From assembly GCA_951813575.1 (NCBI GenBank), contig OX638375.1, forward strand, positions 3,882,752-3,946,751: a DNA stretch of 64,000 nucleotides. Reading direction: 5' to 3'. The position numbers were made by a program, and so were the translations under genes. This DNA comes from Candidatus Binatia bacterium (lineage in GTDB: Bacteria; Desulfobacterota; Binatia; UBA9968; JAJDTQ01). Below, in pieces: positions 12,456 to 63,995 of this stretch (position 1 is the first letter of the stretch; the number at the start of each line of letters is the position of its first letter). The notes below the pieces were generated by a model. The model ran no database searches and was not told where the DNA came from. It was given only the letters and a program-made list of their open reading frames with translations.

Positions 12456-14594
12456 GTGAGCGATTCCTACATCGTCGGCGTCGACATCGGCGGGACCTTC
12501 ACCGATTGCGTCGCGGTCAGCGGCGAGGGGACCATGACCCTGGGCAAGGCTTCCTCGACGCCGGACAATTTCGCCCTGGGCGTGCTCGACGCGGTGCGGG
12601 ACGCGGCGCACCATCTCGGGATGGCGGACGAGCGCGGGCTGCTGAGCGCCACCCGGCTCTTCTACCACGCCTGCACCATCGGCGATAACACGCTGATCAC
12701 CCGGAGCGGCGCGCGCACCGGCCTCATCGCCACCGCCGGGTTCGGCGACACCATCCTGATGATGCGCGGCGGCGTGGTGGCCGGACTGCCCGAGGCCGAG
12801 GCCCACCACATGGCGGCGCTCACCAAGCCCGAACCCCTGGTCCCCAAGCGTTTCATCGCCGAGGTCAACGAGCGGGTCGATTTCGAAGGGGAGGTGCTGG
12901 CGGACCTGGACGAGGCGGAAGCCGAGCGGGCGATCCGAAAACTCGTGGACAATGGCGTCGAGTCGGTGGCGGTTTCGCTCCTGTGGTCTATCGCCAACGA
13001 CCGCCACGAACGAGTGATCGGCGAGCTCCTGCGCCGGCGGTACCCGGACCTTTTCGTAACCCTCTCCAGCGAGGCGGCTTCCTTCCAGGGGGAATACGAA
13101 CGTACCGCCACGACGGTCTTCAACGCCTACATCGGCCCGCGGATCGGCTCCTACCTCAACGACCTGCGGGTGATCCTGGCGGACCGGGGCCTGCGGCGCG
13201 AGCCGTTGATCATGCAGGCCTACGGCGGGGTCCTGGGCGTGGACGACTCGGTGCGCAAGGCGGTGGGAACCATCGAGTCCGGCCCGGCGGCCGGGGTCGC
13301 CGCCTGCCGCTTCATGGGGAGCCTGAGCGGCATCGACAACATCGTGGCCGCGGACATGGGCGGCACCACCTTCAAGGTCGGCATCATCCGCGATGCCGCC
13401 GTCGAGCGGGACTACCAGCCGATCTTCCTTCGCTACCGGTTGCTGTCGCCCAAGATCTGGGTGGAATCCATCGGCGCCGGCGGCGGCAGCATCGCCTGGA
13501 TCGAGGAAGGCACCGGTCTTTTGAAGGTCGGCCCCCGGGGCGCCGGGGCCACGCCCGGGCCGGTGTGCTACAACCGCGGCGGCACCGAGCCCACGGTCAC
13601 CGACGCGAGCCTGGTCCTGGGGTACCTGAACCCCGGGTATTTCCTGGGCGGGCAGATCGTCCTGGACGTGGAAGCCGCCCGGCGGGCGGTGGAGGAGAGG
13701 GTGGCCGGGCCCCTGGGCATGAGCGTCACCGAGGCGGCCGGCGCCATCCACCGCATCGTCAACGCCCAGATGAGCGACCTTATCCGCAACGCCACCATCC
13801 AGCGCGGCCACGACCCGCGAGGCGATACCATGTTCGCCTTCGGCGGCGCCTGTCCGGTGCACGCCGGCCGGTTCGCGGCCGAGCTCGGGATCGAGCAGGT
13901 GGTGATCCCGGTCACGGCGTCGGTTCACGGCGCGGTGGGTCTGGTGTCCTCGGACGTGGTGTACGAGGAAGGGGTCTCCGACCGCACCCTGGTGCCGGTG
14001 CCCGCCGACCGGGTCAACGCATCCTTCTCGCCGATCCTGTCCAAGGTCCGCGACAGCCTGGAGAACGCGGGTTTCGGCGCCCGGGACATCACCCTCGCGC
14101 GCAGCGTGGACATGCGCTACCGCTACCAGGTCCACGAGATCAACGTGCCGATTCCACCGGGTGAGGCGGCCTTGACCGAGGAGGATCTCGAGGGCGTCTA
14201 CGCCCGGTTCGACCGGCTCTACGAGGCGGCCTACGGCAAGGGCTCGGCCTACCGGGCGGCCGGCAAGGAGATCGTCACCCTGCGGGTTACCGGGTCCGGG
14301 GCGATGCCCAAGCCGGCCCTGCGGCCCCTGGAGGAAGGCGGCGAGGCCGCGGCGGCCCGAAAGGGCGAGCGGCCGGTCTACTTCGAGGAGTTCGGCGACT
14401 ACGTGCCCACCGTGTTGTACGACATCGCCAGGATGCGGCCAGGCATGGTCATCGCCGAGCCCGGCGTCATCGAGACGCCGATCACGACGATCCTGATCAA
14501 CCCGGGCGACCGGGCGGTGATGGACGACATCGGCAACATCCGAATCACGGTCGGGTCGCAGGCGACTCTTTCCAGGGGAGAGAACCATGGCTGA
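12456..14594 (+). CDS. Hydantoinase A / oxoprolinase / acetone carboxylase beta-type subunit (HyuA family)
   Basis: 712 aa. N-terminal IVGVDIGGTFTDCV ATPase motif of the hydantoinase_A family. Confidence 0.85.
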   Translation: MSDSYIVGVDIGGTFTDCVAVSGEGTMTLGKASSTPDNFALGVLDAVRDAAHHLGMADERGLLSATRLFYHACTIGDNTLITRSGARTGLIATAGFGDTILMMRGGVVAGLPEAEAHHMAALTKPEPLVPKRFIAEVNERVDFEGEVLADLDEAEAERAIRKLVDNGVESVAVSLLWSIANDRHERVIGELLRRRYPDLFVTLSSEAASFQGEYERTATTVFNAYIGPRIGSYLNDLRVILADRGLRREPLIMQAYGGVLGVDDSVRKAVGTIESGPAAGVAACRFMGSLSGIDNIVAADMGGTTFKVGIIRDAAVERDYQPIFLRYRLLSPKIWVESIGAGGGSIAWIEEGTGLLKVGPRGAGATPGPVCYNRGGTEPTVTDASLVLGYLNPGYFLGGQIVLDVEAARRAVEERVAGPLGMSVTEAAGAIHRIVNAQMSDLIRNATIQRGHDPRGDTMFAFGGACPVHAGRFAAELGIEQVVIPVTASVHGAVGLVSSDVVYEEGVSDRTLVPVPADRVNASFSPILSKVRDSLENAGFGARDITLARSVDMRYRYQVHEINVPIPPGEAALTEEDLEGVYARFDRLYEAAYGKGSAYRAAGKEIVTLRVTGSGAMPKPALRPLEEGGEAAAARKGERPVYFEEFGDYVPTVLYDIARMRPGMVIAEPGVIETPITTILINPGDRAVMDDIGNIRITVGSQATLSRGENHG

Positions 14595-16425
14595 CAACGG
14601 TCGGACCGTGGATCCGGTGACCTTCGAGATCCTCTCGCACCGGCTCCAGCGCATCGCCAAGGAGATGGGCACGACCATCGAGCGCGTCGGGGGAACGGTC
14701 AACACTACCCAGATGCACGACTACATGGCCTCGCTTTACCGTGCCGACGGCGAGATCCTTGCCACCGGCGAGTCCATGCCCTGGCACGTGGCCTGCGCCG
14801 GGTTCACGGTCAAGTGGATCATCGAGCGCTTCGCCGAGTATGACGGGGTGAACGAGGACGACGTCTTCCTGTTGAACGATCCCTACGTCTCGGCGGTGCA
14901 CCAGTCGGACGTCTACGTCGTTTCCCCCATCCACGTGGAGGGGCGCCTGATCGGCTGGAGCGCGTCGTTCGTCCACGTGATGGACATCGGTGCCATGTCG
15001 CCGGGCGGCGATTCTCCCGAGGCCAAGGAGATCTGCCACGAGGGCCTGCGCATTCCGGGCATCAAGCTGGTGGACCGGGGCAATCTCCGCAAGGACGTGT
15101 TCGACACCCTGATCAACATGACCCGGCGCCCCGACATGGTGGCCCTCGACATCAACTGCCAACTGGCCGGCCACAGCGTGGCCAAGTCGCGCATGCGGCA
15201 GTTCTACACCCTCCACGGCGTCGACCTCATGGACGCCGTGGCCGCCCAGATGATCGACTACTCCGAGCGGGCCCTGCGCAAACGGCTGGAGGACATCCCG
15301 GACGGTGAGTGGAGCGACAGCGCCGCCATCGAGTCCAGGGAGGGCTCGTGGACCGTGAGGCTGACGCTGAGGAAGCAGGGCAGCCGCATGGTGTTCGACT
15401 TCACCGGCACCGACCCTCAGGCGCCCGTCGGCGTCAATTTGCCCTACCACGCCACCTTCGGCACCTGCTTCGAAGGCCTCGTGGAGACCGTGGCCTATGA
15501 TTTTCCCCGCAACCACGGGCTGTTCCGGCCCATCGAGACCATCGCTCCGCCGGGCACCCTGGTCAACGTCACCCATCCGGCGCCGGTTTCCCTCAACACC
15601 ACCTCGGGGGGCGCCACCGCCAAGTACCTCGTGGTCTCGGTGCTGAACGGCATGCTGGCGGGCAGCCAGGCGTGGCGCGACGAGATCATGGTGCGCATCT
15701 GGGGCGGGCGCCGGGTGCGGACCTCGGGGGTCAACCAGCACGGCATGTTCTATTCGACGAGTCTGGCCATGTCGCCGCTGAGCGGCAGCGGCGCCCGGGC
15801 CACCATGGACGGGGTCGACACCACCAAGCTCGACTTCATGACCTGTCCCAACGTGGAGTGGCTGGAGGCCAACTGCCCGATGCTGTTCCTGTTCCGGCGC
15901 CACGCCAGGGACCAGCAGGGGGCCGGCCGGTTCCGCGGCGGCACCGGCGCGGAGATGGCGTTCTCGGTGCACAAGGCGCCCGACGGCAAGATCGAGGGCG
16001 TGGCCTTCGGCGTGGCCGGCCTCGTCAACGGCGGCCGCGGTATTTTCGGGGGCTACCCGGGGGCGCCGAGCATTCTGGTGCACCTGGGAGGGACCACGCT
16101 GGGTGAGATGCTGGGCGCGGACCGGGTGCCGCAGGCCCTCGACGAACTCGGCGGTACGCCGCGGGTGCTGCCCTACGCGAGCTTCGAGCTCAGGCGGGAC
16201 GACGTCCTCTACTACACCCTCGGCATGGGCGGGGGCTACGGCTGTCCGCTGGACCGGGACCCGGCGGCCGTGTTGAAGGACGTGGAGGACGAGCTGGTGT
16301 CGGCGGAGACCGCCCGCGGCGTCTACGGCGTGGTCGTCGATTCGGATTCCCTCACCGTGGACGTTCAGGCCACCAGCGACCTCCGGCGGCAGCGTCTGCT
16401 GGAGAACCGGGGAGGGAGACCGTGA
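14587..16425 (+). CDS. Hydantoinase B / oxoprolinase / acetone carboxylase alpha-type subunit (HyuB family)
   Basis: 612 aa. Starts MADNGRTVDPVTFEILSHRLQRIAKEM, typical hydantoinase_B. Overlaps hyuA by 8 nt (translational coupling). Confidence 0.85.
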   Translation: MADNGRTVDPVTFEILSHRLQRIAKEMGTTIERVGGTVNTTQMHDYMASLYRADGEILATGESMPWHVACAGFTVKWIIERFAEYDGVNEDDVFLLNDPYVSAVHQSDVYVVSPIHVEGRLIGWSASFVHVMDIGAMSPGGDSPEAKEICHEGLRIPGIKLVDRGNLRKDVFDTLINMTRRPDMVALDINCQLAGHSVAKSRMRQFYTLHGVDLMDAVAAQMIDYSERALRKRLEDIPDGEWSDSAAIESREGSWTVRLTLRKQGSRMVFDFTGTDPQAPVGVNLPYHATFGTCFEGLVETVAYDFPRNHGLFRPIETIAPPGTLVNVTHPAPVSLNTTSGGATAKYLVVSVLNGMLAGSQAWRDEIMVRIWGGRRVRTSGVNQHGMFYSTSLAMSPLSGSGARATMDGVDTTKLDFMTCPNVEWLEANCPMLFLFRRHARDQQGAGRFRGGTGAEMAFSVHKAPDGKIEGVAFGVAGLVNGGRGIFGGYPGAPSILVHLGGTTLGEMLGADRVPQALDELGGTPRVLPYASFELRRDDVLYYTLGMGGGYGCPLDRDPAAVLKDVEDELVSAETARGVYGVVVDSDSLTVDVQATSDLRRQRLLENRGGRP

Positions 16426-23180: not shown

Positions 23181-23774
23181 ATGACCATAGCATTGCGTCC
23201 GCGGCTCACGGTGGCCGTCCTGGTGATTGTCCTGGCTTCCGGCGCCGTGTATGCGCATCGCGGCGCCACCGGCATCGTCAAGAAGCGCATGGATGCCATG
23301 ATGTCTCTGGGCGATTCCATGAAGGCGCTGACCGCGATGATGCGCGGGAAGCAACCCTACGATGTCGAGCGGGTCAGGACTCACGCGATGGCCGTCGCCC
23401 GGCACGGAGGTAGAGATCTGACCCGGCTGTTCCCGGAGGGGAGCCTGCAACATCCCACGAGGGCGAAACCGGCCATCTGGGCCGATTGGGAACGCTTCTC
23501 GACTCTGGCGAAGGAAATGGCCGTGTACGCCGGCGCGCTGGCATCGACGACGGCCAACCAGCGGCGGTCCGGGCGGGGCGGCAGCATGCCCGTGGACCCC
23601 ACGCCGGAAGAACTCGCGGCCATGGCGCCGGACGTGGTCTTCGAGCGCTTGAGGCGGACCTGCTCGGACTGCCATCGGACTTTTCGCGAGAAAAGCGAGT
23701 TGCCGTCGCGGCCTGCCGAGTGGTTCGGCCGCCTTGCCCGGGTCAATCCAGCTTCGACCGCAGCAAGTCGTTGA
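23181..23774 (+). CDS. Class II cytochrome c (cytochrome c'/c556-like)
   Basis: 197 aa. Signal peptide. Heme-binding CSDCH motif near the C-terminus, as in four-helix-bundle class II cytochromes. Confidence 0.6.
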
Positions 23775-26091
23775 CCAGGCGGGGGTCGGCCTTGCCGTTG
23801 GTGGACTTCATCACCTGCCCCACGAAGAACCCCAGGAGATTGGTCTTGCCCTCGCGATAGAGGGTGACGTTCTCGGGATTGGCGGCGAGGACGGCGTCGA
23901 CGACGGGTTCGAGCTGGTGTGCGTCGGTTACCTGCCGGAGTCCGAGTCTTTCAACGATGCCGGCGGCATCCTCGCCGCTTTCCAGCATGACGGCGAAGAC
24001 CTGCTTGCCGGCGTTGCCGGAGATGGTCTGGCTGTCGATGAGCGCCACCAATTCCGCCAGCGCTGCCGGAGTCAACGGCAGTGAGTCCAGCGGTATGTCC
24101 CTCAGTGCCGGGCGCAGCTCGTTGACGATCCAGTTGGCCATCGTCCGGGGGTTGTCGTGGTTGCGGACGGCCTCCTCGAAGAACCCGGCGAGGCCGTCGT
24201 CCGCGGCCAGCAACAACGCGTCGCCGGCCGCGAGCCCGAGCCGTTCGCGGTAGTTCTCCATCCTGGAGCGTTGGGCCACGGTCAATTCAGCGTCCGCGGG
24301 GACCTGTCGCTCGGCTCGAGCCTTGGCCGTCTTCCCGGGAGCGGCCTGTGTCCCGCGTGGCCGCCTGGGCTCCCCGTCGCCTTCGCCTCGCCGCACGATC
24401 TTGAGCCACGAGTCCCGGAGCGTCACGATGCGGTTGAATACGAGAGCGGCCCCGGTCGAGTCCGGGTCGACGCAGAAGTACCCCAGCCGCTCGAACTGGA
24501 ACCGGTCGCCCGCGCCGGCGGCGGCGAGGCTCGGTTCCACGCGGCTCTTCACGGTTTCCAGGGATTTGCTGTTCAGCAGCTCGCGGTAGTCGCGGCTGGA
24601 GTCGCCCTGGGGGTCGGGCACCGAGAACAGCCGGTCGTAGAGCCGGAGCTCGGCTTCGAGCGCGTGGGCGGCGGATACCCAGTGAATGGTCCCCTGAACC
24701 TTCTTGCCGCTCTTGCCGGAGCCGCTCCGGGTCGTCGGGTCGTAGGAGCACCGCAACTCCGTCACCTCGCCCGTGCGTGGGTCCTTGACCATCTCGTCGC
24801 AGCGGATGATGTAAGCGTAGCGCAGCCGCACCTCCCGGCCCGGCGCCAGCCGGTGGTATCCCTTGGGCGGCTCCTCGAGAAAGTCGTCCCGCTCGATATA
24901 GAGCTCGCGGGAGAAGGGGACGGTTCGCGACCCTTCCTTGGGCACGTCGTGGGGATAGTAGGGCGCCTCCAGCTCCTCCACGCGGCCCTCCGGATAGTTG
25001 GTGAGGACCACCTTGAGGGGACGCTCCACCGCCAGCACCCGCGGCGCCTTCTGGTTGAGGTCGTCGCGGATGAAGTACTCGAGCTGGCCCATCTCCACGG
25101 TGTTGTCGCTCTTGGCGATGCCTACGCTGTGGCAGAAGTTGCGGATCGCCTCGGGCGTGTAGCCGCGCCGCCTCAGCCCCGCCAGGGTGGGCATGCGCGG
25201 GTCGTCCCATCCGGCCACGTGCTTCTCTTCCACCAGCTCCAGCAGCCGGCGCTTGCTCATCACGGTGTAGTCGAGGTTCAGCCGGGCGAACTCGATCTGC
25301 CGGGGCTCGGACGGGACGTCCAACTGCGCCAGGATCCAGTCGTAGAGCTCGCGGTTGTTCTCGAATTCCAGGGTGCAGAGGGAGTGGGTGACCCCTTCCA
25401 GCGCGTCCGACAGCGGGTGGGCGAAGTCGTACATGGGATAGATGGGCCAGGCGTCGCCGGTGTGGTGGTGGGTGACGTGACGGATGCGGTAGATTACCGG
25501 GTCGCGCATCTTCATGTTCGGCGACGCCATGTCGATCCTTGCACGCAGCACGTGGGCGCCGTCAGGGAACTCGCCGTTCCGCATGCGGGCGAAGAGGTCC
25601 AGGTTCTCGGCTACACCGCGGGCCCGGTAGGGGCTCTCCCGCCCCGGCTCCGTGACCGTGCCGCGGGTCTCGCGGATCTCCGCCTCGCTCAGGCTGCAGA
25701 CGTAGGCGCCGCCGCGCTCGATGAGCTGGACGGCGAAGCGGTACAGCTCTTCGAAGTAGTCCGAGGCGTTGTACAGGCCATCGCCCCAGTCGAAGCCCAG
25801 CCAACGGATGTTGTCCTTGATGGCCTCGACGTAAAGGGTATCCTCCTTGGCCGGGTCGGTGTCGTCGAAGCGCAGGTTGCACTGCCCGCCGAACTCCCGG
25901 GCGACGCCGAAGTTCAGGCAGATGGACTTGGCGTGGCCGATGTGGAGAAAGCCGTTGGGCTCGGGCGGGAAGCGCGTCACCACCCCGCCGGGATGTTTGC
26001 CATTGGCCAGGTCGTCCCGCACGATGGTGCGGATGAAGTCCAGGGGAGGCTCGCGCCTGGCGGTGCTGTCGGTCTCTTCCGTCTTGCTCAT
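23743..26091 (-). CDS. glnS: Glutamine--tRNA ligase with C-terminal YqeY/GatB-like appended domain
   Basis: 782 aa. Class I HIGH (FLHIGHAKS) and VMSKR (KMSK-type) motifs and GlnRS-like body. An extra ~230 C-terminal residues (…NWIVNELR…[20 protein letters not shown]…[10 protein letters not shown]) resemble the YqeY/GatB tail. Confidence 0.8.
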
Positions 26092-29719: not shown

Positions 29720-30987
<1,268 letters not shown>

Positions 30988-32023: not shown

Positions 32024-32506
32024 CTAGAACAGTCCCGCCAGGTACGGCTCCGGCCAGGGCACGTGGAGGATGTGCTCGAACACGCCGTAGATGAACGTCC
32101 AGGCCAGCGCCGCCAGGAGGCACGACAGGAACCAGCCCCCGCCGTAGGCCTTGGCGTAGCCGAAGACGAACAGCGGCACCGCGGTCGGAAACCCGATGAC
32201 CCGGATGGCGAAGTAGAAGCCGAGGATCCAGGCCCAGACCTCGAGGTTGCCCCAGCGGCTCCCCGACCGCAGGGCGGGCGCGTCGAAGTGGATGCCCTCG
32301 GGCTCTTCCGTGCCGCGGCCGGGTCGCAGATCCCTCAACACCTGGACCGCGGCCAAAAAAACTCCGATGCCGCCGAGCAGGAACACGATGATGGATGCCC
32401 GCAGCTCGTCCCAGCCGTCGGCCACGCGCAGCGCCCAGAGCAGCACCAGCCCAATGACCACGGTGAAGAGAACACCCTCGTAGTGAAGCCGCCTGTCCCG
32501 GTTCAT
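32024..32506 (-). CDS. TctB-like small permease of tripartite tricarboxylate transporter
   Basis: 160 aa, ~4 TM. Overlaps the tctA stop by 4 nt. Confidence 0.6.
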   Translation of the reverse strand: MNRDRRLHYEGVLFTVVIGLVLLWALRVADGWDELRASIIVFLLGGIGVFLAAVQVLRDLRPGRGTEEPEGIHFDAPALRSGSRWGNLEVWAWILGFYFAIRVIGFPTAVPLFVFGYAKAYGGGWFLSCLLAALAWTFIYGVFEHILHVPWPEPYLAGLF

Positions 32507-33999
32507 GCCTCACCTGTTCCGGCGGCGCGCTGCCGCCGCTCGCGCCGCTCCTTCCAGATCGGGTAGCAGAGCGACAACGCCACCAGGGCCAGCAGGATGA
32601 CGACGGCCGGGCGCAGCAGCCACTCGAATCCGTAACGCGTGTAGGAAAGCCACAGGTAGGTCTCCATCTTGGTGCCGAGCACCACCCCCAGGAGCAGCGG
32701 CGGCCGCGGCCAGCCGTGCCGCCGCATCATGAAGCCCAGCAGCGAGAACACCAGCAGCGCGCGCAGGTCGTTGACGCTGAAGTTGGCGGCGAAGGCGCCG
32801 ATGAAGACGAACACCGCCACCAGCGGCACGATGCTGTGGAACGGCATGAAGCATGCCCGTGCCATGGGCTTGGCGAGGGCGCCGCACATGGCCACCGCGA
32901 TGACGTTGCCGATGACCAGGGTCCAGATCACCGCGAAGGTGAGGTCGAGCTGCGTGGTCAGCATGTCCGGACCGGGCTTGATGCCCACCGCCACGAAGGC
33001 CGTGAGGATCAACGCCGTGGAGGTGCTGCCCGGGATGCCGAAGGCCAGGGTGGGGATGTATCCGCCGCCTTCCTTGGCGTTGTTGGACGCCTCGGGCGCG
33101 ATCACCCCGCGTATGTCGCCCTTGCCGAAGTTCTCGGTGTTCTTCTCGGTCTGCACCGCGTGGGCATAGGCGAACCAGTCGGCAACGGAGCTGCCGAGTC
33201 CCGGCAGGAAGCCGACCCATGCGCCGATGGCGGAAGACCGGACCATCAGCCACCAGTGCCGGAACACGTCCTTGATGCCGTCGAGGAAGCCGCTGCCCAG
33301 CTCCTCGTGCTCGGCGATGCTGGTCTTGCGGCTCGCCAGGTCGATGATTTCGGGAATGCCGAACAGTCCCAGGGCGACGATGATGAGGCTGATGCCGTCC
33401 CAGAGATAGTCGTAGTCGAAGTCGAACCGCGGGATCCCCGACTTCACGTCCATGCCGATGGTGGCCACCAGCACGCCGATGATGCCGGCGATGATGCCCT
33501 TGACCGGGGCGTTGCCGCTCAGCACCGCCACCATGGTGAGGCCCCACAGGGTCAGGACGAAGAACTCCGGCGAGCCGAAGGCCAGCACCAGGGGACGCAG
33601 AATCGGCAGGGAAGCCACCAGCACCAGCGCGCCCACGAACCCGCCCAGCAGCGACGCGGCGAAGGACGCGCTCAGCGCCCGGGCGGCCTGCCCCTGCTTG
33701 GCCAGGGGATAGCCGTCCAGGATGGTTGCCTGGGAGCCCGAGCTGCCGGGTATGGAGATGAGTATGGAGGGGAAGGCGCTGGCGGTGTTCCCCACGGCGT
33801 CCAGGCCCACCAGTAGCGCGATGACCGGATAGGGATCCTGCATGGTCATCACGAACGGGAGCATGATGGCCAGCGTGGTGGGGCCGCCGATGCCCGGCAG
33901 GAACCCCACCATGCTCCCGATCAGCACTCCCAGGGCCATCATGCCCAGGGAGTGCAGGGTCAGGATGCCGAGCAGGCCGTCAAACGCGGCTTCGAGCAT
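32503..33999 (-). CDS. TctA large permease of tripartite tricarboxylate transporter
   Basis: 498 aa, highly hydrophobic. TctA-family glycine-rich motifs (GFLPGIGG, AFGIPGS). Confidence 0.85.
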   Translation of the reverse strand: MLEAAFDGLLGILTLHSLGMMALGVLIGSMVGFLPGIGGPTTLAIMLPFVMTMQDPYPVIALLVGLDAVGNTASAFPSILISIPGSSGSQATILDGYPLAKQGQAARALSASFAASLLGGFVGALVLVASLPILRPLVLAFGSPEFFVLTLWGLTMVAVLSGNAPVKGIIAGIIGVLVATIGMDVKSGIPRFDFDYDYLWDGISLIIVALGLFGIPEIIDLASRKTSIAEHEELGSGFLDGIKDVFRHWWLMVRSSAIGAWVGFLPGLGSSVADWFAYAHAVQTEKNTENFGKGDIRGVIAPEASNNAKEGGGYIPTLAFGIPGSTSTALILTAFVAVGIKPGPDMLTTQLDLTFAVIWTLVIGNVIAVAMCGALAKPMARACFMPFHSIVPLVAVFVFIGAFAANFSVNDLRALLVFSLLGFMMRRHGWPRPPLLLGVVLGTKMETYLWLSYTRYGFEWLLRPAVVILLALVALSLCYPIWKERRERRQRAAGTGEA

Positions 34000-34005
34000 C
34001 CACTG

Positions 34006-35055
34006 CTACTTTTTCTTCTTGCCCGTGGGCAGGCCGTGCTCCTTGCGGATGTTGAAGAGGAAGTCCTTGACCTCCTGGGAGGCATTGGTGACCTCCAGGA
34101 CCAGCTTCGCCGTGGCCGGACCGGCACGGGTCCTCCAGGCCTCGCCGAAGAACTTGGTGGCCTGTACCTTGAACTCCGGGTCGTCCACCATCTTGCCCCA
34201 GGCCCCATGCAGGACGTTCATGACGTTGTCGGGCGTTCCCTTGGGGGCGTGCAGAAACTTGTCCACGTCCGAGGGTCCGGCCCACACCTTGAAGGCCTGC
34301 CACGCCACGCCGGAGGGCCTCTTGTCGCCCATCAGCTCCTGGAAGGTCGGGATGTCCGGGAAGTCCCTGCGGCGCTTGTCCGTAAGCAGCACGAGCGGAT
34401 CCACGACGCCGTCCTTCTGGAGGTCCCGGATGAGCTTGGCGTTGCCGGTGCCCCACATCTCGATCTCGCCCTGGCGCAGCGCCAGCACCATCTCGCCGGT
34501 GCCCGCGTAGCCGAAAATCCAGCGGTTGTTCCAGCCCAGATACTTGGCTCCCCACACGGTCATGGCCACCCACGTGCGGATGCCGTCGGAATCGCCCACC
34601 ACCACGGGCTTGGCCTTGGCATCGGTGAGGCGCTTGCGGGCGTCCTTCCGCACCATGAGGATGCTGCCGCCCCGCATGATGGAGCCGACGTACGAGTACG
34701 TGCGGGGATTGAACTTGACCCGCTTGCCGCCGCGCACGTAGGTGCTGAGCGCCGACGACGAATCCTGCAGCAGCGTCAGCCCGTCCGGTTTGGCCCGGCG
34801 CGTGTAGTAGTTGTTGACCACGGTGCCGCCGCCGCCGGGCATGTTCTGCACGATGGTCTTGGGGTTGCCGGGTATGAATTTCGGCAGAAAACGGGAAACC
34901 AGCCGAGCGGTGGCGTCGGTGCCGCCGCCGGGGCTGGAGGAGACCAGGACCCGGATGGTCTTGCCCTCGTAGTAGTCGGCCGCGGGCGCCGGGGCGGCGC
35001 ACAGGACGATCGCCGCAAGGATCGAAGTCAGTATCGTCGCACGGTATCCATCCAT
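34006..35055 (-). CDS. TctC/Bug-family periplasmic substrate-binding protein
   Basis: 349 aa. Signal peptide. Bug motifs (SSSPGGGTDATARL, QNMPGGGG). Confidence 0.8.
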   Translation of the reverse strand: MDGYRATILTSILAAIVLCAAPAPAADYYEGKTIRVLVSSSPGGGTDATARLVSRFLPKFIPGNPKTIVQNMPGGGGTVVNNYYTRRAKPDGLTLLQDSSSALSTYVRGGKRVKFNPRTYSYVGSIMRGGSILMVRKDARKRLTDAKAKPVVVGDSDGIRTWVAMTVWGAKYLGWNNRWIFGYAGTGEMVLALRQGEIEMWGTGNAKLIRDLQKDGVVDPLVLLTDKRRRDFPDIPTFQELMGDKRPSGVAWQAFKVWAGPSDVDKFLHAPKGTPDNVMNVLHGAWGKMVDDPEFKVQATKFFGEAWRTRAGPATAKLVLEVTNASQEVKDFLFNIRKEHGLPTGKKKK

Positions 35056-35119
35056 GGTTAGGGTTCCTCCTTCGCTGGCACGCTCTGGATATTATGGTTA
35101 TCGACGCAGTGTCAACCGG

Positions 35120-36172
35120 CTACATGCCCATGCCGGATTCGTCCAGGCTCTCCTGGCGGTGCAAGCCGAAGGCTTCCAGCACCGGGGCGTCGTGCATGGA
35201 GAAAAGGATCGCTTCGTCTTCAGCCGAGCGGTTGGCGTGCTCGTGCCAGCTCCACAACGGCACGATGAAGGTGTCTCCCTTGCTCCATTCCAGTGTCTCG
35301 CCATTGATCACCGTGGCGCCGCTGCCACGGAACGCGTGGTAGATGCTCGTGCTGTTGTGGCGGTGCGCCCGGGTGCGCTCGCCGGGGCGCAGCATCTGCG
35401 CCCGGCACGCCAGCGTCGGCAGGGTGCTGCCGCCGGTGAGCGGGTTCACGTAATCCAGGGCGACGCCGTCATAGGGGTCGGCCGGGGTATCGGCCAGCGC
35501 CTGGAGCGAACGGTAGGTGTCCTTCCACCGGTAGTGGAGCGGCGTCGGCGCCGCCCCGTCGCCGGAACGCACCGGACGGGTCATGCCGAAGAGGGACGCT
35601 TCCTGCCCGCTCGCGTGGGTGGCCTGTTTCTCTTCGGAGTAGGGCTCGTAGGAGATCACCTGCAGCGACTGGATCAGCGGCACGTCGAGGCCGTCGAGCC
35701 ACACCATGGGCTCGCGGCCCTCGTGGCCGTGGTCGTGCCAGGTCCACTGGGGCGTCAGGATGAGGTCCCCCTCCGCCATCATCAACTTCTCGCCGTTCAC
35801 CACCGTGTAGGCGCCCTGGCCCTGCACGATGAAGCGGATGGCGGCCATGGTGTGACGGTGGGCGGGAGCCACCTCGCCGGGCTGGATCATCTGGCAGGCC
35901 AGCAGCATGGTGTGGCTGGTCATCTCGATGTGCCGCATCCCGGGGTTGACCAGGCGAATGGTGCGCCGCTCGGTGCGGCCCTTCTCGATGCCGATCCGGT
36001 CGCGGGCCTGTCGGAGACTGTCGTAGACGTCGTCCCACTTCCACAGGTGCGGCACCACCTTCGTCTGGGGGTCGGGCGTGCGCTCGTGGCGGTCCAGCTT
36101 CCACAGGCCGGAAAGCCAGCGGTCGGCCAGGAAGTTGTCCAGCTCCGTCAAATCCTGCGTTTCGGTCTTCAT
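35120..36172 (-). CDS. Gentisate 1,2-dioxygenase-like bicupin dioxygenase (paralog)
   Basis: 350 aa. HRHTMAAIRFIVQGQG and HRHNSTSIYHAFRGSG cupin motifs. ~45% identical by eye to 839-1858. Confidence 0.8.
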   Translation of the reverse strand: MKTETQDLTELDNFLADRWLSGLWKLDRHERTPDPQTKVVPHLWKWDDVYDSLRQARDRIGIEKGRTERRTIRLVNPGMRHIEMTSHTMLLACQMIQPGEVAPAHRHTMAAIRFIVQGQGAYTVVNGEKLMMAEGDLILTPQWTWHDHGHEGREPMVWLDGLDVPLIQSLQVISYEPYSEEKQATHASGQEASLFGMTRPVRSGDGAAPTPLHYRWKDTYRSLQALADTPADPYDGVALDYVNPLTGGSTLPTLACRAQMLRPGERTRAHRHNSTSIYHAFRGSGATVINGETLEWSKGDTFIVPLWSWHEHANRSAEDEAILFSMHDAPVLEAFGLHRQESLDESGMGM

Positions 36173-38110: not shown

Positions 38111-39289
38111 ATGAACGCGGCATTGCAGGGGACCATGGCGCTGGATCTGAGCGGCCACGTGGCCGGGCCGTTTTGCGGGAGCCTTTTGGGAGACCTCGGG
38201 TGCGACGTGATCAAGGTGGAGCTGCCGGACGGAGGCGACACCCACCGTGGCCGGAATCCCTTGTACGAGGGCTACGGGCCGAGCTTCCGGGCGCTCAACC
38301 GCAACAAGCGGAGCCTGACCCTGGACCTGCGAAACCCTCAGGGGAAGGAGATCCTGCTCAAGCTGCTGGAGAAGGCGGATGTCCTGCTGGAGAACTTCCG
38401 TCCCGAGACGCGCGTGAAGCTGGGGCTCGACTACGAGCGCCTGTCCGAGCTCAACCCGAGACTGGTCCATTGCTCCATCACCGGCTACGGGCAGGAGGGC
38501 CCCTACCGCGACAAGCCGGGGTTCGACACCATCGGCCAGGCCCTGAGCGGCATGCTGAGCCTGATGACCGACTTCGACAAGCCCAAGGTGGTGGGGGTGT
38601 CGGTCACCGACCATTCCACCGGAGTGTTCGCCGCCTACGGCATCCTGGCGGCGCTGATGGCGCGCCACCATACCGGCCGCGGCCAGTTCGTGGACGCGTC
38701 GCTCCTGCGCATCAGCCTGGCCTTCATCGAGTCCCACATGGCCGACTACCTGAACGGCGGCGAGGCCATCACCCGGGAGAACTTTCCGCGGGGGCGTATC
38801 TATTGTTTCGTCCCCAGCGACAAGAAAGCCCTGGTGATCCACCTCTCCGGACACCAGAAGGCGTGGGAAGGGCTGGTGACCGCGGTGGAACGCCGGGACC
38901 TGCTGGACGAGCCTCGTTTCGCCACGCGAAAGGACCGTTGGGAAAATCACTACGATATCGTTCCCATCCTGCAGGCGGAGTTCGAGAAGAAGCCGCGAGA
39001 TCACTGGCTCAAGGCGCTGGACGCGGTCAGTGTTCCCAACGCGCCGATTTACAAGATCGACGAGGTGCTCGACGATCCGCAGGTGGCGGCGCTGGGGCTA
39101 CCGCAGGAGATCCGGCATTCCAGAATGGGGTCGAGCAACCTCATCGGAAATGCGATCCAGCTTTCAGACACGCCCATGCAGTTTCACCGCGCCGCGCCGC
39201 TGCTGGGCGAGAACACCGAGGAGATTCTCCGCGGGCTGGGTTATGACGAGGAGGCGTTGGCGGAGTTGCGGGACAACGGCGTGACGTGA
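38111..39289 (+). CDS. Family III CoA-transferase (CaiB/BaiF family)
   Basis: 392 aa. Characteristic N-terminus LDLSGHVAGPFCGSLLGDLGCDVIKVE and the conserved Asp region. Confidence 0.8.
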   Translation: MNAALQGTMALDLSGHVAGPFCGSLLGDLGCDVIKVELPDGGDTHRGRNPLYEGYGPSFRALNRNKRSLTLDLRNPQGKEILLKLLEKADVLLENFRPETRVKLGLDYERLSELNPRLVHCSITGYGQEGPYRDKPGFDTIGQALSGMLSLMTDFDKPKVVGVSVTDHSTGVFAAYGILAALMARHHTGRGQFVDASLLRISLAFIESHMADYLNGGEAITRENFPRGRIYCFVPSDKKALVIHLSGHQKAWEGLVTAVERRDLLDEPRFATRKDRWENHYDIVPILQAEFEKKPRDHWLKALDAVSVPNAPIYKIDEVLDDPQVAALGLPQEIRHSRMGSSNLIGNAIQLSDTPMQFHRAAPLLGENTEEILRGLGYDEEALAELRDNGVT

Positions 39290-55465: not shown

Positions 55466-55479
55466 AGAAAAATATGGAC

Positions 55480-56085
55480 TCGGATGCGACGATTGGTCGA
55501 CTAAAGTACGGCACATCGTCGAATCGTCTTGGAAGCCTTTCCTGAAGGGTCTCTACGATACCTACGGCGACCGGCTCCGCATCATCGTCACCGGCAGTAG
55601 ACGTCTCGATGTCTACCGCCGCGGCCGTGTTGTGCGATTTCCATCTGGGATTCCTCGTCAGGCCGTGGTTTCGGAACGTCTCGCGATCACTGCGCAAGGA
55701 GCCCAAGTGGTACCTGAGGGACTGGGCCGACATCGAAGACGTCGGGCAGAAGGCCGAGACCTTCGTCGCGTGCCATCTTCTCAAGGCGGTCGAAGGCTGG
55801 AACGACATGGGACTGGGACGGTTCGAACTCGGTTACCTGCGTGACAAGGAGAAGCGCGAAGTGGACTTCCTGGTGGCCAGGGAGGGGAGCCCTTGGATAC
55901 TCGTAGAAGTGAAGTACCGCGACGAATACTTGAGCCGATCGCTCAAGTACTACCAGGATCAACTCAAGGCCCCGTTCGCGTTTCAGGTGGTTCTTGATGT
56001 CGACTTCGTCGATGCCGACTGCTTCGCAAGGCCTGGGTCACCCACGGTCGTGCCGGGTAGAACCTTTCTTTCCCAACTGCTTTGA
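55480..56085 (+). pseudogene. Remnant of a DUF4143 AAA-ATPase gene (truncated and frameshifted)
   Basis: Frame 1 (55407-55844) carries …LRIIVTGSRRLDVYRRG…. Frame 3 (55609-56085) carries the DUF4143-like C-terminus …REVDFLVAREGSPWILVEVKYRDEY…. The N-terminal Walker region is absent. GC content is locally lower. Confidence 0.5.
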
Positions 56086-56338
56086 CCGAAAGGTTGGTTG
56101 TACCTACCGCCGGCCAAGTCTGGCTCTCTAGGCTGAACACTCTCGAAGGGAGCCTTCTGTCGGGCTTCGGGAGGCTCGCTTGTCCTCCGCGTGCCAACAA
56201 ACAGTGAGTTCACCTGCGGTTCTGTCCCACTTCCCAAGCATAGTCGGTGCGGGGCATACTGCCGTACGCCGTTGACAACACGAACTCCCCTTCGGTAAGG
56301 TCTCGCAGTTACAATCACGCGTGTGATCGGGAGGATCC

Positions 56339-56929
56339 ATGGGAAAGCTACAGATGCTTGATCCGAGGGCTGACGTTCTGCTTGAGAACCGCCCACCGGT
56401 GCCCGGGCTGGATGATCTGACGGGGAAGGTGGTTGGGATCATCGATAACGGCCAGGCCAACTCGAGCCCGATGTTCGAGGAGTTGGCGCGGCTGATCGAG
56501 GAGCAGACGGGCGCCGCCGAAGTGCTGTTGCGGAAGAAGCCGAGCCACATGAATGCGGCGCCGGGGGAACTGATCGAGGAGATGCTGAGCCGGTGCGACG
56601 CGGTCGTCACCGGCCTCGGTGCTTGAGGGTCGTGCACGTCGTGGAGTGTCCACGACGCCATCGAGATTCAGAAGCGCGGCACGCCCACTGTGACCCTGTG
56701 TCAGACCATCTTCATGGAGCTGGGACGTAAGGAAGCGACGTTCTTCGGCATGCCCAAGCTGCCGCTGGTGCAGATCCCGCACCATCCGAGCGGCGGCGCC
56801 CGGCCGGGTGAGCACGCCGAGGATGCGAGGATCGCCATCGGTCCGGTGCGCGAGACCCTGACGGACGCCGATGCCGCCGAGTCTGCGCCGGCCGGCGCCG
56901 CGGGAGCTGAAGCCCAGGCGGGCAAATAG
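56339..56929 (+). CDS. UGSC-family selenoprotein; in-frame TGA (56624-56626) read as selenocysteine
   Basis: ORFs 56339-56626 and 56690-56929 are in the same frame, separated only by the TGA. Read-through gives …AVVTGLGA-U-GSCTSWSVHDAIEIQKRGTPTVTLCQ…, containing the U-G-S-C motif. SECIS-like hairpin 11 nt downstream. Confidence 0.65.
56637..56657 (+). promoter_or_regulatory. Putative bacterial SECIS element hairpin
   Basis: CGUCGUGG-AGUGU-CCACGACG: perfect 8-bp GC-rich stem, 5-nt loop with G and U, beginning 11 nt after the UGA. Confidence 0.5.
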
Positions 56930-56977: not shown

Positions 56978-58069
56978 ATGCCCGCCGACACGTCACAGGT
57001 GAAGCTCGTCTCCGAAGTCATCGAGGTGGAAGACTCGCTGGAGGCGGTCAACGACTGGTTCTGCGAGCGCCAGCTAAGCGACGGCTTGCCCATCGTTCCG
57101 CCCACCCGCGAGCGGGTGGAGCGGGTGCTCACGGGCACCCACCGCGATCCCCAGGAGATCATCGGGCAGGTGCCGCCCAAGTGGGCACCGGCCACCGTGG
57201 AGAAGATCGCCGTCAGCAGCGTGATGGCCGGGTGCCTGCCGGAATACCTGCCGGTGGTCATCGCCGCGGTGGAGGGGATCATGGAGCCCCGTTTCAACCT
57301 CTACGGGGTCCAGGCCACCACCGGGTACGCGGGTCCGGCGCTGCTGGTGAATGGTCCCGTCCGGAACGAGCTGGGAATCAACTGCGACGCCGGCGTGTTC
57401 GGCCCGGGCCATCGCGCCAACGCCACCATCGGCCGCGCCATCCGCCTGATCCTCATCACCGTGGGCGGCGGCTACCCCGGCGACACCGACCGCGCCACCT
57501 TCGGCTGGCCGGGCAAGTACAGCTTCTGCTTCGGCGAGAACGAGGAGAAGAGCCCCTGGGAGCCCTACCACGTGAGCCGGGGCTACAAGCCCGAGCAGAG
57601 CACCGTGACCGTGTGCGGCATCAACGGCTTCATCCCCATGCACACCGCCGGGAGCACCGGCCAGGAGGCGCTGTCGTCGCTGGCCGAGGTCATCGCCATG
57701 CATCACGGCGGCAGCCACCTGGACGTGGGCAGCTTCGGCGGCGGCACGCCGCTGGTGGCCCTGTGCACCGAGGACGCCGAGATCATGGCGCGGGACGGCA
57801 TCACCCGGGCTGACATCCGCGAGTACCTCTGGGAGCATTCCACCATCACCTTCGCCAGCATCCCGGACCGGCGCAAGGGCACCAAGAACGACGAGGAGCT
57901 GCTGCGGGAGTCGCCCAACGTCACCCCCGACGGCATCGTGCACCTGGCCACCCAGCCCGACGACATCATGGTGATCGTGACCGGCGGCAAGCACCGGCAC
58001 TGCGTGCTGCTGCCCATGTGGACCGGCCGGAACACGCTGGCCGTCACCAAGCCCATACGGACGGCATGA
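56978..58069 (+). CDS. Conserved hypothetical protein (363 aa) immediately downstream of the selenoprotein
   Basis: Long ORF with high-GC codon usage. No family recognised. The start is uncertain (no clear RBS). Confidence 0.5.
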   Translation: MPADTSQVKLVSEVIEVEDSLEAVNDWFCERQLSDGLPIVPPTRERVERVLTGTHRDPQEIIGQVPPKWAPATVEKIAVSSVMAGCLPEYLPVVIAAVEGIMEPRFNLYGVQATTGYAGPALLVNGPVRNELGINCDAGVFGPGHRANATIGRAIRLILITVGGGYPGDTDRATFGWPGKYSFCFGENEEKSPWEPYHVSRGYKPEQSTVTVCGINGFIPMHTAGSTGQEALSSLAEVIAMHHGGSHLDVGSFGGGTPLVALCTEDAEIMARDGITRADIREYLWEHSTITFASIPDRRKGTKNDEELLRESPNVTPDGIVHLATQPDDIMVIVTGGKHRHCVLLPMWTGRNTLAVTKPIRTA

Positions 58070-60603: not shown

Positions 60604-61653
60604 ATGAGAAAGATACGCTTTGCCATCGCCGTCTTGTTCGTCCTCCTGCTTGCCGGCCAGGCGGCCGCGCAGGACGTAAACTTCAAGGGCAAGACCGTCA
60701 ACCTCATCGTCGGCACCGGCGCCGGCGGCGGTTATGACATCATCGCCCGCCTGTTCGCCAAGGTGGCCCCCAAGCACTTGCCGGGCAGTCCCCGGTTCAT
60801 CGTACGCAACGTTCCCGGCGGCGCCGGCCTCAAGGGAACTCAGTACATTAACCGCAGGAAGCCGGACGGTCTCACCGTCGGTCCTCACTTCACCAGCCTG
60901 GTGATGAAGGAGCTGGCGGGCGTGGACGTGCCGGGCTTCAACGTCAAGGACCTCATCATCCTCGGAGCGCCCACGCTGGTGGACGACAGCTACACCATCT
61001 GCGCCGACCGGAAGGTCGTCAAGTCCTGGGAAGACATGCTCAAGATGGGCCGGCCCCTGCGCATGGCGTCGCAAAGGCCCGGCATCGGCCGGGTCCCCAT
61101 GGGCGGCGAGTTCGTGCAGCTCGTGGGCGGTCCCATGAAACTCATCTACGGCTACAAGTCCACCGCCGAGGAGTTGGCGGCCTTTGCCCGCGGCGAGACC
61201 GAGGTGGTGACCTGCCTCGAGCGCCGCTTGCCGCGCATGTATCCGGAGCTGGTGGAGAAGAAGCGGCTGCTGCCGATATTCTGGTGGAACGCTCCGCCGA
61301 GCGAGGGGTGGATGAAGCGGCTGGAAGCCAAGGTGCCGCGCAACATCCTCAAGCTGCCCGGTCTCAAGATCAGCGAGTCCCAGAAGTTGGCGTTCAACAC
61401 GGCCGTGAACATTCACCAGTCCCTGAGGGCCTTCATGCTTCCGCCGAAGACGCCCCAGCCCATCGTCGACACCTGGCGCAAGGCGTTCAAGGCCACCATC
61501 GAGGACCCGGAGTTCGTGAAGATCGCCACCGTCGCCGGCTACGACGTGGGCTACGGCTCTCCGGAGCATTACGAGAAACAGCTCGCCACCATCAAGGATC
61601 TGCCTCCTGACGGCGCGCTGTTCTTCCAGAAGCTGATGGGCGAGAAGCGCTAG
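60604..61653 (+). CDS. TctC/Bug-family periplasmic substrate-binding protein
   Basis: 349 aa. Signal peptide. Bug motifs (GTGAGGGYDIIARL, RNVPGGAG). Confidence 0.8.
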   Translation: MRKIRFAIAVLFVLLLAGQAAAQDVNFKGKTVNLIVGTGAGGGYDIIARLFAKVAPKHLPGSPRFIVRNVPGGAGLKGTQYINRRKPDGLTVGPHFTSLVMKELAGVDVPGFNVKDLIILGAPTLVDDSYTICADRKVVKSWEDMLKMGRPLRMASQRPGIGRVPMGGEFVQLVGGPMKLIYGYKSTAEELAAFARGETEVVTCLERRLPRMYPELVEKKRLLPIFWWNAPPSEGWMKRLEAKVPRNILKLPGLKISESQKLAFNTAVNIHQSLRAFMLPPKTPQPIVDTWRKAFKATIEDPEFVKIATVAGYDVGYGSPEHYEKQLATIKDLPPDGALFFQKLMGEKR

Positions 61654-61684
61654 GAGCCGGTGCGGTCATGGGATCGTGGCGGCG

Positions 61685-61762
61685 GTAGGGCGACCAGCGG
61701 GTCAGCCCTACACGGATCCAACGCGGCGTAGGCATGTAGGGGCGACCGGCGGTCGCCCCTAC
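61685..61762. repeat. Pair of REP-like GC-rich palindromic hairpins (family 3)
   Basis: GTAGGGCGACCAGCGGGTCAGCCCTAC (61685-61711) and the perfect palindrome GTAGGGGCGACCGGCGGTCGCCCCTAC (61736-61762). Confidence 0.5.
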
Positions 61763-61838
61763 CTGGGTCACCGCAGCGTAGCTTGCCAATGTTGCGGGCG
61801 CGGGTTCCGGGACGTGGGTCTCTCGCCGGGAGTCTTCA

Positions 61839-63995
61839 ATGCTCGAAGCTTCCGTTGACGCTTTCTTTCATCTGTTCTCGCCGGGGCCGCTCCTCGCGAT
61901 GCTCCTGGTGCTGCCGGTTGCGCTGTTCTCCGGGCTCATGCCCGGAGGCGGCCTGCCGGTGTCCGTGGTGGTCCTGAGCCTGGCGGTCCACCTCGACCCC
62001 TGGGTCGCCATCACCATCGTGGTGTTCCACATGGCGGCCAGCGACATCACCGAGCCCATCCCTGCCATCCTCTTCGGTGTGCCCGGCGCCCGTTCCGCCC
62101 AGGCCACCGTGCTCGACGGCTACCCCATGGCCCAGCAGGGCCTGGCCGGGGTCGCCCTGGGCGCGAGCTACACCACCACCATCGTGGGCGGAGTCATCGG
62201 CGCCATCGCACTGCTGCTGGCGCTGCCGGTTAGCCGGCAACTCCTGGAGTGGTTCGGCTCGGCCGAGTTCTTCCTGCTGACCCTCATGGGGGTGATGGCG
62301 GTGGCCGTGGTCAGCGCCGGGGCCTTCGTCAAGGGCATCCTCACCGCGGCCTTCGGCATCGCCATCGCCATGGTGGGCTACGCCGACCTGGGCGGCAACG
62401 TGCGCGCCGCCATGGGGTTCGACTTCTACCTGTGGGACGGCTTCGGGCTGGTGCCGGTGGTGGTGGGCCTGTTCGCGCTGCCCGAGGCCATCGCCCTGGT
62501 GGTGGGGGACACCACCATCGCCCGGGCGCGGCTGGACACGCTCTTGCGGGAGGCCAAGGCGGACGTGTGGCGCGGCATGTGGGAGGCCTGGAACCACAAG
62601 TGGCTGATGGCGCGGTCGTCGCTCATCGGCGTGTTCGTGGGCATCATGCCCGGGGTCGGCGGCAGCGCGGCCCACTGGATCGCCTACGCCCAGGCGCGCC
62701 AGACCGAGCCCGGCGGCACCGAGACCTTCGGCAAGGGCGACGTCCGCGGCGTCATCGCCTCCGACGCCGCCAACAACTCGGTGGACGGCGGCGTGCTCAT
62801 CCCCACCGTGGTGTTCGGCATTCCCGGCAGCGGCGGCATGGCCATTGTCCTTGCCATCCTCATTCTCACCGGGATCACCCCGGGCCCGCTCATGCTCACG
62901 CAGCACCTCGACCTCACCGTGAGCATGGTCTACACCATCGCCTTCGCCAACCTGGTCGTCGTGCCCATCATGTTGGCCTTCGCCCCGACCCTCTGCCGCA
63001 TCGCGGTGATTCCGCCCAACATCCTGGCGCCGGTGGTGGTGGGCATCGTCTCCCTGGCGGCGTTGGCGGCCAGCGGCTCTCTGGGCGACCTGGGGGCGGT
63101 GCTGGCCTTCGGCCTGCTGGGCGTCTTCATGAAGCGCTACGGCTGGCCCAGGCCGCCCATCCTCATCGCCGTGGCGCTGGCGGACATCCTGGAGCGGTTC
63201 CTGTGGATCTCGGTGAGCAACTACGGCTGGGGAATGCTCCTGCGGCCCCAGTTCCTGGTCATCCTCGCATTCATGATCGCGGTGACCCTGTTCAGCCTGC
63301 GGGCCCAGCGCGGCGCCCGGCAGGCCATGATGTCCATGACCGAGGGGGAGGAGTCCGGGCAGGTGACGGCGGCAGGGGACACGCCGGCAGCTGTTGACGC
63401 GGCGGGATCTCGGGAGGGTCTGGATGATGCAGCAGTCCGGGACATCGCGGCGGAATCACCGGCAGCCGGCGACAAGGACGGAGATAGTTCGCTCAAGCGC
63501 CGCTTCACCCTCGAGGTCGCCGGAGAGGCCGTGCTCCTGCTCGCGGTGGGCGCGTTCTTCCTCTACATGTTCATCGATTCGTTCAGTTATCCGGAAGGCG
63601 CCGACCTGATGCCGAGGCTCGCGGTGCTGGTGGGGACGCCGTTCTGGCTCATCCGCGCGTGGACCCTGTTGAGCGGCACTCCGGAAAAGCGCATCGAGGA
63701 AGGCGACATCATGGACACGGGCTTCATCCTCGGGGACGATCCCAAGACCGAGAGCCAGCGGTTCGTGCGCATCTTCGGCTTCACCGCGCTCATGTACGTG
63801 GCCATCTGGCTCATCGGCGTGCACGTGGCCCTGCCGGGAATGCTCTTCCTCTACTTGATGTACTACGGCAAGGCCGGCTGGCTGGTTTCCGCGGGCATCG
63901 CCCTGGCATTCCTGGCGCTGATCGTCGGCTTCTACGACATCGCCCTGCACATCGTCTGGCCCGAGGCGCCCTTCGGCCTCTGGCCGACGGGGTAG
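61839..63995 (+). CDS. TctA large permease fused to a C-terminal TctB-like domain
   Basis: 718 aa. N-terminal ~500 aa are TctA-like (GVPGARSAQATVLDGYPMAQQG…). After a ~70-aa acidic/Ala-rich linker, a ~150-aa 4-TM domain with TctB-like features. Confidence 0.75.
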   Translation: MLEASVDAFFHLFSPGPLLAMLLVLPVALFSGLMPGGGLPVSVVVLSLAVHLDPWVAITIVVFHMAASDITEPIPAILFGVPGARSAQATVLDGYPMAQQGLAGVALGASYTTTIVGGVIGAIALLLALPVSRQLLEWFGSAEFFLLTLMGVMAVAVVSAGAFVKGILTAAFGIAIAMVGYADLGGNVRAAMGFDFYLWDGFGLVPVVVGLFALPEAIALVVGDTTIARARLDTLLREAKADVWRGMWEAWNHKWLMARSSLIGVFVGIMPGVGGSAAHWIAYAQARQTEPGGTETFGKGDVRGVIASDAANNSVDGGVLIPTVVFGIPGSGGMAIVLAILILTGITPGPLMLTQHLDLTVSMVYTIAFANLVVVPIMLAFAPTLCRIAVIPPNILAPVVVGIVSLAALAASGSLGDLGAVLAFGLLGVFMKRYGWPRPPILIAVALADILERFLWISVSNYGWGMLLRPQFLVILAFMIAVTLFSLRAQRGARQAMMSMTEGEESGQVTAAGDTPAAVDAAGSREGLDDAAVRDIAAESPAAGDKDGDSSLKRRFTLEVAGEAVLLLAVGAFFLYMFIDSFSYPEGADLMPRLAVLVGTPFWLIRAWTLLSGTPEKRIEEGDIMDTGFILGDDPKTESQRFVRIFGFTALMYVAIWLIGVHVALPGMLFLYLMYYGKAGWLVSAGIALAFLALIVGFYDIALHIVWPEAPFGLWPTG

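Follow-up and report, generated by a model that had tools for sequence, protein, structure and literature searches.

At positions 56339-56929 (+) of a 64,000-nucleotide stretch of Candidatus Binatia bacterium DNA (contig OX638375.1; the whole stretch is called the window below), two open reading frames (ORFs), 56339-56626 (ATG start, 95 amino acids) and 56690-56929 (GTG start, 79 amino acids), share one common frame. When the full interval is translated, the sole internal stop is the TGA at 56624-56626 (+), in the context ...CDAVVTGLGA*GSCTSWSVHDAIE..., with the motif reading ...VVTGLGA*GSCTSWSVHD.... Read through this codon, the interval becomes one UGSC-family gene of 196 codons that ends on a TAG stop at 56927-56929 and carries a predicted selenocysteine (Sec) at codon 96, the U of a U-G-S-C motif. 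A Shine-Dalgarno-like GGGAGG is directly visible at 56329-56334 (+), 4 nucleotides (nt) 5' of the ATG, and the choice of start codon is consistent with homologues that begin MAKLKMLDP or MATLKMLDP. Beyond the TGA lies a hairpin resembling a selenocysteine insertion sequence (SECIS), with an 8-bp stem CGUCGUGG/CCACGACG and the loop AGUGU (56637-56657, +), and a conserved gene for a 363-amino-acid protein of an uncharacterised family follows at 56978-58069 (+), starting 48 nt 3' of the UGSC gene. A preliminary description of this DNA had proposed two same-frame ORFs split by the TGA only and one 196-codon read-through protein with a U-G-S-C motif; the coordinates, the frame and the translation all agree. 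We consider it very likely that 56339-56929 is a single Sec-encoding UGSC gene with a SECIS hairpin, and we hold with still greater confidence that it is a selenoprotein gene.

A UGSC-family gene probably translated through TGA

To place the read-through product in a family, Cys was put in for the stop. The product then matched the Pfam UGSC model PF24696 at 148.2 bits (cut-off 25; E 3.3e-43), with residues 6-175 lying on positions 2-171 of the 172-position model and the match crossing the TGA uninterrupted. The NCBIfam model NF041046, 'UGSC family (seleno)protein', was matched over positions 2-146 of 147 at 112.9 bits (E 1.3e-32). These hidden Markov model (HMM) searches bear out the UGSC identity that had first been suggested from the motif. 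G97, S98 and C99 are invariant, and at column 96 the Binatia clade has TGA where haloarchaeal, Acidimicrobiia and other members have Cys, so that U-G-S-C falls at the same column as in the known family. UGSC was described as a selenoprotein of unknown function from Hyphomonas neptunium and the Olavius delta1 worm symbiont (PMC1976440), it is a major family of established selenoproteins in the Global Ocean Sampling (GOS) data, where 255 Sec forms stand against 21 Cys forms (PMC2398784), and a 2026 review still counts it among the families with functions largely uncharacterised (PMC13188914). The family has thus been known since 2007 and 56339-56929 adds a mis-annotated member to it; given that the family is already described, the novelty of the gene itself is modest.

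An ortholog scan restricted to one genome per species yielded 44 related loci with 62-97% identity to the query, most of them labelled as Candidatus Binatia metagenome-assembled genomes and the rest as Deltaproteobacteria, Syntrophobacterales or Thermodesulfobacteriota. Complete chromosomes bearing the gene include the 4,210,610-bp source contig and OZ243916.1, OZ244070.1 and OY761465.1. Codon 96 is TGA in all 44 loci, each time with the same hairpin, which excludes chance or sequencing error. A second, paralogous UGSC copy in eight of these loci also carries TGA, as do seven distant Sec forms, and more remote homologues in Salinigranum and other haloarchaea, in Acidimicrobiia and elsewhere bear Cys at this column, the alignment of Cys with the TGA codon for which the preliminary description had suggested looking.

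The coding character of the frame continues beyond the TGA, as had been proposed from the letters alone. The GC content at third codon positions (GC3) is 0.82 on its 5' side and 0.83 on its 3' side, values usual for genes of this 66% GC window. The TGA is followed by 21 codons (97-117) before a restart first becomes possible, at GTG 56690, and between the two ortholog groups these codons diverge by 0.088, 0.071 and 0.35 per site at their first, second and third positions. This third-position-dominated pattern indicates that the frame is translated and constrained ahead of any restart, and nowhere in the gene is conservation higher than over the same 21 codons. On this coding divergence 5' of GTG 56690, a separate start there for the C-terminal ORF was rejected.

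Were the TGA a true stop, the locus would encode a 95-amino-acid protein, with or without a separate 79-amino-acid protein from GTG 56690, or would represent a pseudogene or a sequencing error. Public records can be read this way, since the exact 95-amino-acid N-terminal fragment belongs to a cluster of 87 sequences, all 95 amino acids long and with its three named members all called 'hypothetical protein', and some close-clade database proteins end exactly at ...GLGA; the window also lacks visible Sec machinery, as discussed below. However, retention of the TGA in 44 of 44 species and in the eight paralogues shows that it is not a sequencing error or a nonsense mutation of recent origin, the strongest conservation in the gene falls precisely on the codons that a stop would leave untranslated, the Pfam model and the Cys homologues continue through the site, and the Cys-form and fused versions are single polypeptides. 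No natural half-protein homologues were found, the shortened database entries ending at the TGA itself. These entries are best understood as gene calls halted at the TGA, so that homologues of half length, which might have overturned the proposal, do not in fact do so, and the 87-member cluster illustrates the fragmentary calls that had been anticipated. We regard a true stop as nearly out of the question.

A second possibility is that the UGA is translated, but as something other than Sec, either through an alternative code (Trp or Gly) or through near-cognate read-through (Trp, Cys or Arg). Entries of close homologues from the Joint Genome Institute (JGI) that show W at the site would favor this, and sel genes are at this point presumed for the source genome. 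The DNA behind one such W-bearing entry nonetheless has TGA at the site, so that the W reflects a choice of translation table. Among the stops of 46 likely genes in the window, 24 are TGA, 21 TAG and one TAA; with TGA ending ordinary genes this often, the genetic code is standard, and an alternative code was rejected. The homologues, moreover, carry Cys at the column rather than Trp or Gly, the family is one whose Sec forms are long established in the GOS data cited above (PMC2398784), and a SECIS-type hairpin under synonymous-site constraint lies 3' of the codon. Translation as another amino acid therefore appears highly improbable, and decoding of UGA 56624-56626 as Sec remains the preferred reading. 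A GC3-based scan of the window for TGA-split genes left the UGSC locus as the only one that qualifies; two other TGA-split candidates were set aside as ordinary same-frame neighbouring genes.

The hairpin downstream of the TGA

The hairpin CGTCGTGG-AGTGT-CCACGACG lies exactly at 56637-56657, its first nucleotide being the 11th after the TGA, and the 8-bp stem with a pentaloop reported for this position in the preliminary description is correct in place and sequence. Folding of the surrounding 63 nt (56618-56680) gave -29.2 kcal/mol compared to a shuffle mean of -20.6 (z = -3.26), with one of 200 shuffles as stable. When synonymous-codon entropy was evaluated over 42 distinct orthologous sequences, codons 100-107 showed 0.12 bit against a gene mean of 0.88, the lowest value of any 8-codon window in the gene. 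Only four of the 78 degenerate codons that are invariant in amino acid are also invariant in codon, and all four, 101 (TCG), 103 (AGT), 105 (CAC) and 106 (GAC), fall inside the stem-loop (permutation p = 5e-5); Ser103 is always AGT, a codon rare in the genome.

The conserved core comprises the inner 6 bp (56639-56644 with 56650-56655) and an NGUNU loop. In distant Sec forms the stem measures 6-7 bp and the pentaloop is AGUGU, AGUAU, UGUAU or GGUCU, with GU invariant at loop positions 2-3 in all variants and the inner six pairs intact in 11 of 11 variants. One sequence, L056, shows two compensatory pairs (U-A to C-G and C-G to U-A) that arise through coupled Ser>Leu and Asp>Ser replacements. 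Collectively, orthologues, paralogues and distant Sec forms all retain the hairpin, with synonymous change suppressed and one compensatory case.

In the minimal SECIS of Escherichia coli fdhF, the upper stem-loop lies about 11 nt after the UGA, presents GU in its apical loop and is bound by SelB. By this geometry the intracoding hairpin described here is closely comparable, starting at the 11th nt after the UGA with its loop 18-19 nt after it; GU is likewise fixed at loop positions 2-3, and the variant GGUCU resembles the fdhF loop. The two differ in that our hairpin has no bulged U in its stem, is unrelated in sequence and matches no curated RNA model. Its position and GU loop fit a bacterial SECIS, and in the standard bacterial mechanism it would act as the SelB-binding element, the GU pentaloop 11 nt after the UGA directing insertion of selenium at that codon.

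Several observations weigh against a Sec-encoding gene with a dedicated SECIS. The NF041046 score of 112.9 bits is below the curated equivalog cut-off of 125 bits, so that of the family assignment from UGSC models the homology across the TGA stands and the formal NCBIfam membership does not; rule-based naming would therefore skip the Binatia clade, a point of difference from the rest of the family, even though it is clearly homologous. Neither in the window nor in the 44 related loci was a selA, selB, selD or tRNA-Sec gene found; tRNA scans of both gave no tRNA genes, and no SelA, SelB or SelD domain turned up among the roughly 40 window ORFs scanned. With regard to the hairpin, no Rfam family was matched at gathering thresholds over the whole window or at E <= 10 on 56560-56760, and the compensatory change is seen in a single sequence. 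The conserved peptide S-W-x-x-H-D dictates much of the stem, and the Cys form L048 (TGC, L048:48-572) keeps the identical hairpin core ACGTCGTGGAGTGTCCACGAC, so that the conservation seen in the hairpin is not separable from constraint on the protein.

Two further Cys forms bear on the same question. In L045a (TGC, L045:5001-5525) the core differs at two synonymous sites only, and in L045b there is no hairpin core; the L048 and L045 Cys forms all reside on Acidimicrobiia-type contigs. The hairpins retained there could reflect recent Sec-to-Cys conversion with a fossil SECIS, or the peptide TSWSVHD alone could dictate the stem. As to the decoding machinery, that 44 species keep a translated UGA points indirectly to Sec decoding in the lineage, and the gene implies that the candidate phylum Binatota uses selenocysteine. 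In the literature searched for Binatia or Binatota together with selenocysteine or selenoprotein, we found nothing on this subject.

Coupling to a partner family and a possible two-part enzyme

The product of the gene at 56978-58069 belongs to a family with the invariant motifs DGLPxxPPT, AGC(86)xPE, NLYGxQATT, RANATIGR, GWPGKY and GENEE. It has no match in Pfam or NCBIfam even at permissive E values of 1-10, sequence searches of the PDB with single proteins and with profiles returned noise only for both UGSC and the partner, and no solved structural analogue of the partner was found. A profile search of 1.84 billion cluster representatives nonetheless delineated a large family of 7,472 members, 2,466 of them at E <= 1e-30, the roughly 7,500 clusters being defined at 50% identity.

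The partner lies directly 3' of UGSC in 39 of the 44 loci. Of the five loci without an adjacent partner, three are accounted for by contig ends and one by a disrupted UGSC gene; the fifth, L035, is the only complete locus (L035:10001-20522) that has an intact Sec-UGSC and no partner within 10 kb downstream (tblastn E <= 1e-10). The disrupted ortholog L040:10001-10526 has two in-frame stops, a short C-terminal match (10289-10411) and no adjacent partner found, and is possibly decaying; the same locus has a paralogous module at 6414-7790 that looks intact. Second UGSC copies lie a few kb from the first at L024:6209, L026:8394, L028:1833, L029:4602, L036:1883, L040:6414, L041:5341 and L043:6624, and further paralogous copies at L054:6392 and 10298. 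The paralogues show the motif ...SGLGD-U-GSCTSW..., roughly 42-48% identity, TGA and the same hairpin core, and at least four of them have a partner gene of their own, which indicates that the module was duplicated as a unit.

The coupling extends well beyond the close clade. At six of six distant loci, partner homologues with 44-48% identity on unrelated contigs are each directly preceded by a TGA-split UGSC gene, and one Acidimicrobiia contig carries two Cys-form UGSC genes, each with a neighbouring partner homologue (identity 33-34%, E 1e-57 to 1e-65), and here either gene can come first. Furthermore, UGSC and partner are joined in one polypeptide in 48 of the best 149 partner-family representatives. 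In 29 of these 48 the entry begins with the post-Sec half of UGSC, the ORF having been called after the TGA; in four the partner comes first and the entry ends ...GD just before the Sec position; and about 15 are full-length fusions with a CGSC or degenerate motif. Such an association with a second domain recalls the 'UGSC/Unknown_1 fusion' of a 2008 report, in which a thioredoxin-like fold was proposed; Unknown_1 may correspond to the 363-amino-acid partner family. Among the full-length fusions, P0272, P0262, P0216, P0187 and P0226 (534-563 amino acids) have lost the U/C-x-x-C motif to degenerate forms (for example NSGAPVSW, DIGAAMSW and EIGGSLFG), and in some lineages the UGSC domain of these proteins may have a non-redox structural role.

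An alternative, following the 2008 suggestion, is that UGSC is a stand-alone thioredoxin-like oxidoreductase of general redox defence whose adjacency to the partner is incidental. The UxxC motif would suit such a role, and so would the loci L051, L052 and L055, which have nothing in common but the UGSC-partner pair. Since these three loci share the pair alone, we take the pair as the conserved unit, and any metabolic link as a tendency only. Incidental adjacency is difficult to reconcile with recurrence of the partner on either side of UGSC in Binatia, Acidimicrobiia, Chloroflexota-labelled and other contigs, or with fusion in nearly a third of the best 149 partner-family representatives, and we judge the stand-alone role unlikely. 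That UGSC and its partner form a functional unit is, by our assessment, probable.

The predicted structure of a close homologue, P0001, suggests what the UGSC part of such a unit may look like. The model shows a flavodoxin-like alpha/beta domain, where the 2008 proposal had been thioredoxin-like, and a thioredoxin fold for UGSC was rejected accordingly. In this model a helix immediately following a beta-strand begins with the U-G-S-C pair, the usual location for a redox-active UxxC centre.

Profile searches with 28 UGSC members point to the selenoprotein B reductases (GrdB, GrdF, GrdH and PrdB; TIGR01917, TIGR01918 and TIGR04483). The glycine reductase selenoprotein B model TIGR01917 was matched by 18 of the 28 (best E 2e-5), TIGR01918 by nine, GrdF by seven and PrdB by one, and in the window protein residues 80-148, with the UxxC site inside, lie on positions 330-393 of the 431-position GrdB model when ranges are compared rather than single residues. 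UGSC thus shares with these reductases a UxxC selenocysteine motif and a second protein, separately encoded or fused, with which each works, and its Sec-bearing stretch is weakly but recurrently similar to theirs. It differs in comprising only about 175 amino acids, in scoring far under the family cut-offs, and in its surroundings: no grdA, grdC or grdD lies near the UGSC gene, whose neighbours are acyl-CoA dehydrogenases and TctC/TctA. We take the weak recurrent similarity as a sign of a distant common origin of the Sec-bearing unit rather than of membership.

In close Binatia relatives a conserved gene order runs CoA (coenzyme A) ligase, enoyl-CoA hydratase, thiolase, MetE-like protein, in some cases an S9 peptidase, UGSC, partner, two acyl-CoA dehydrogenases, TctC and TctA. 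Recurring neighbours in other lineages are family III CoA-transferases, MaoC-type hydratases, acyl-CoA dehydrogenases, MmgE/PrpD and solute-binding or transport proteins. Given adjacency and fusion across phyla and the weak GrdB/PrdB similarity of the Sec region, UGSC most likely serves a two-part enzyme as its selenol/thiol redox or nucleophile subunit, with the 363-amino-acid protein as the other part, and the CoA-transferases, MaoC proteins, acyl-CoA dehydrogenases and uptake systems nearby suggest that the breakdown of an imported organic acid would include a reductive step. GrdB-like reductive chemistry is a tentative proposition. Similarly speculative is the fuller model, in which UGSC and its partner of about 350 amino acids would constitute an unrecognised, widespread Sec- or Cys-dependent enzyme, two-component or fused, whose Sec domain, as a minimal GrdB/PrdB relative, would perform reductive bond cleavage on a partner-bound substrate and feed CoA-dependent catabolism of an imported organic acid.

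Counting against these functional proposals, the GrdB-type scores are far below the cut-offs (for the window protein, 14.5 against 602 bits for TIGR01917 and 11.2 against 65.45 bits for TIGR01918), the partner resembles neither the pyruvoyl proproteins GrdE/PrdA nor anything of solved structure, and some fused forms are without either redox residue. The functional model draws its support from genomic context and sequence likeness.

Genomic surroundings and significance

Genes for organic-acid uptake and CoA-dependent catabolism are abundant in the window as a whole. It holds two sets of TctC/TctA tripartite transporter genes, at 32024-36172 (-) and 60604-63995 (+), and a third TctC-like paralogue, 26% identical, at 3410-4450 (-). 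Other genes encode bicupin proteins (839-1858 and 35120-36172), UbiD (4538-6034), hydantoinase A/B (12456-16425) and a CoA-transferase III (38111-39289). Immediately 5' of the UGSC gene, 55466-56338 has a weak coding signal and includes ORF 55609-56085 (+; 158 amino acids, GC3 0.75), which matches the C-terminal part of DUF4143 only (model 53-160 of 160) and looks like a truncated remnant, with 82-94% identity kept in many related loci.

Elsewhere in the window, a 782-amino-acid ORF at 23743-26091 (-) carries the catalytic core of a class I Glu/Gln-tRNA synthetase, anticodon-binding domains and, at the C terminus, a GatB/YqeY domain. An IS110-family transposase (DEDD_Tnp_IS110 and Transposase_20) is encoded at 29983-30969 (+), and GC skew in the window peaks in the 30-32 kb bin (0.165). 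The segment 8001-12000 shows lower GC (0.625-0.635) and weaker GC3, contains ORF 9716-11203 (+) with a Fic/DOC domain, and may be acquired DNA.

For annotation, the present analysis offers a gene-call correction for a UGSC clade found in at least 44 species-level Binatia-type genomes. In contrast to the known members of the family, this clade appears in public protein sets only as 95-amino-acid hypothetical fragments or as entries with Trp at the Sec position, and it does not reach the NCBIfam cut-off that would rescue its annotation. In its Cys homologues and in the SECIS hairpin just 3' of the UGA it otherwise resembles the family as known. Beyond the gene call, the fact that UGSC is strictly paired with, or fused to, a single large unannotated family defines a concrete two-protein unit to express and assay. 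Together, the coupling to a partner, the corrected fold and the hint of GrdB-type chemistry bring the function of an abundant family of environmental selenoproteins within reach of experiment, and the two-component reading, if true, would provide the first function for one of the most abundant environmental selenoprotein families.
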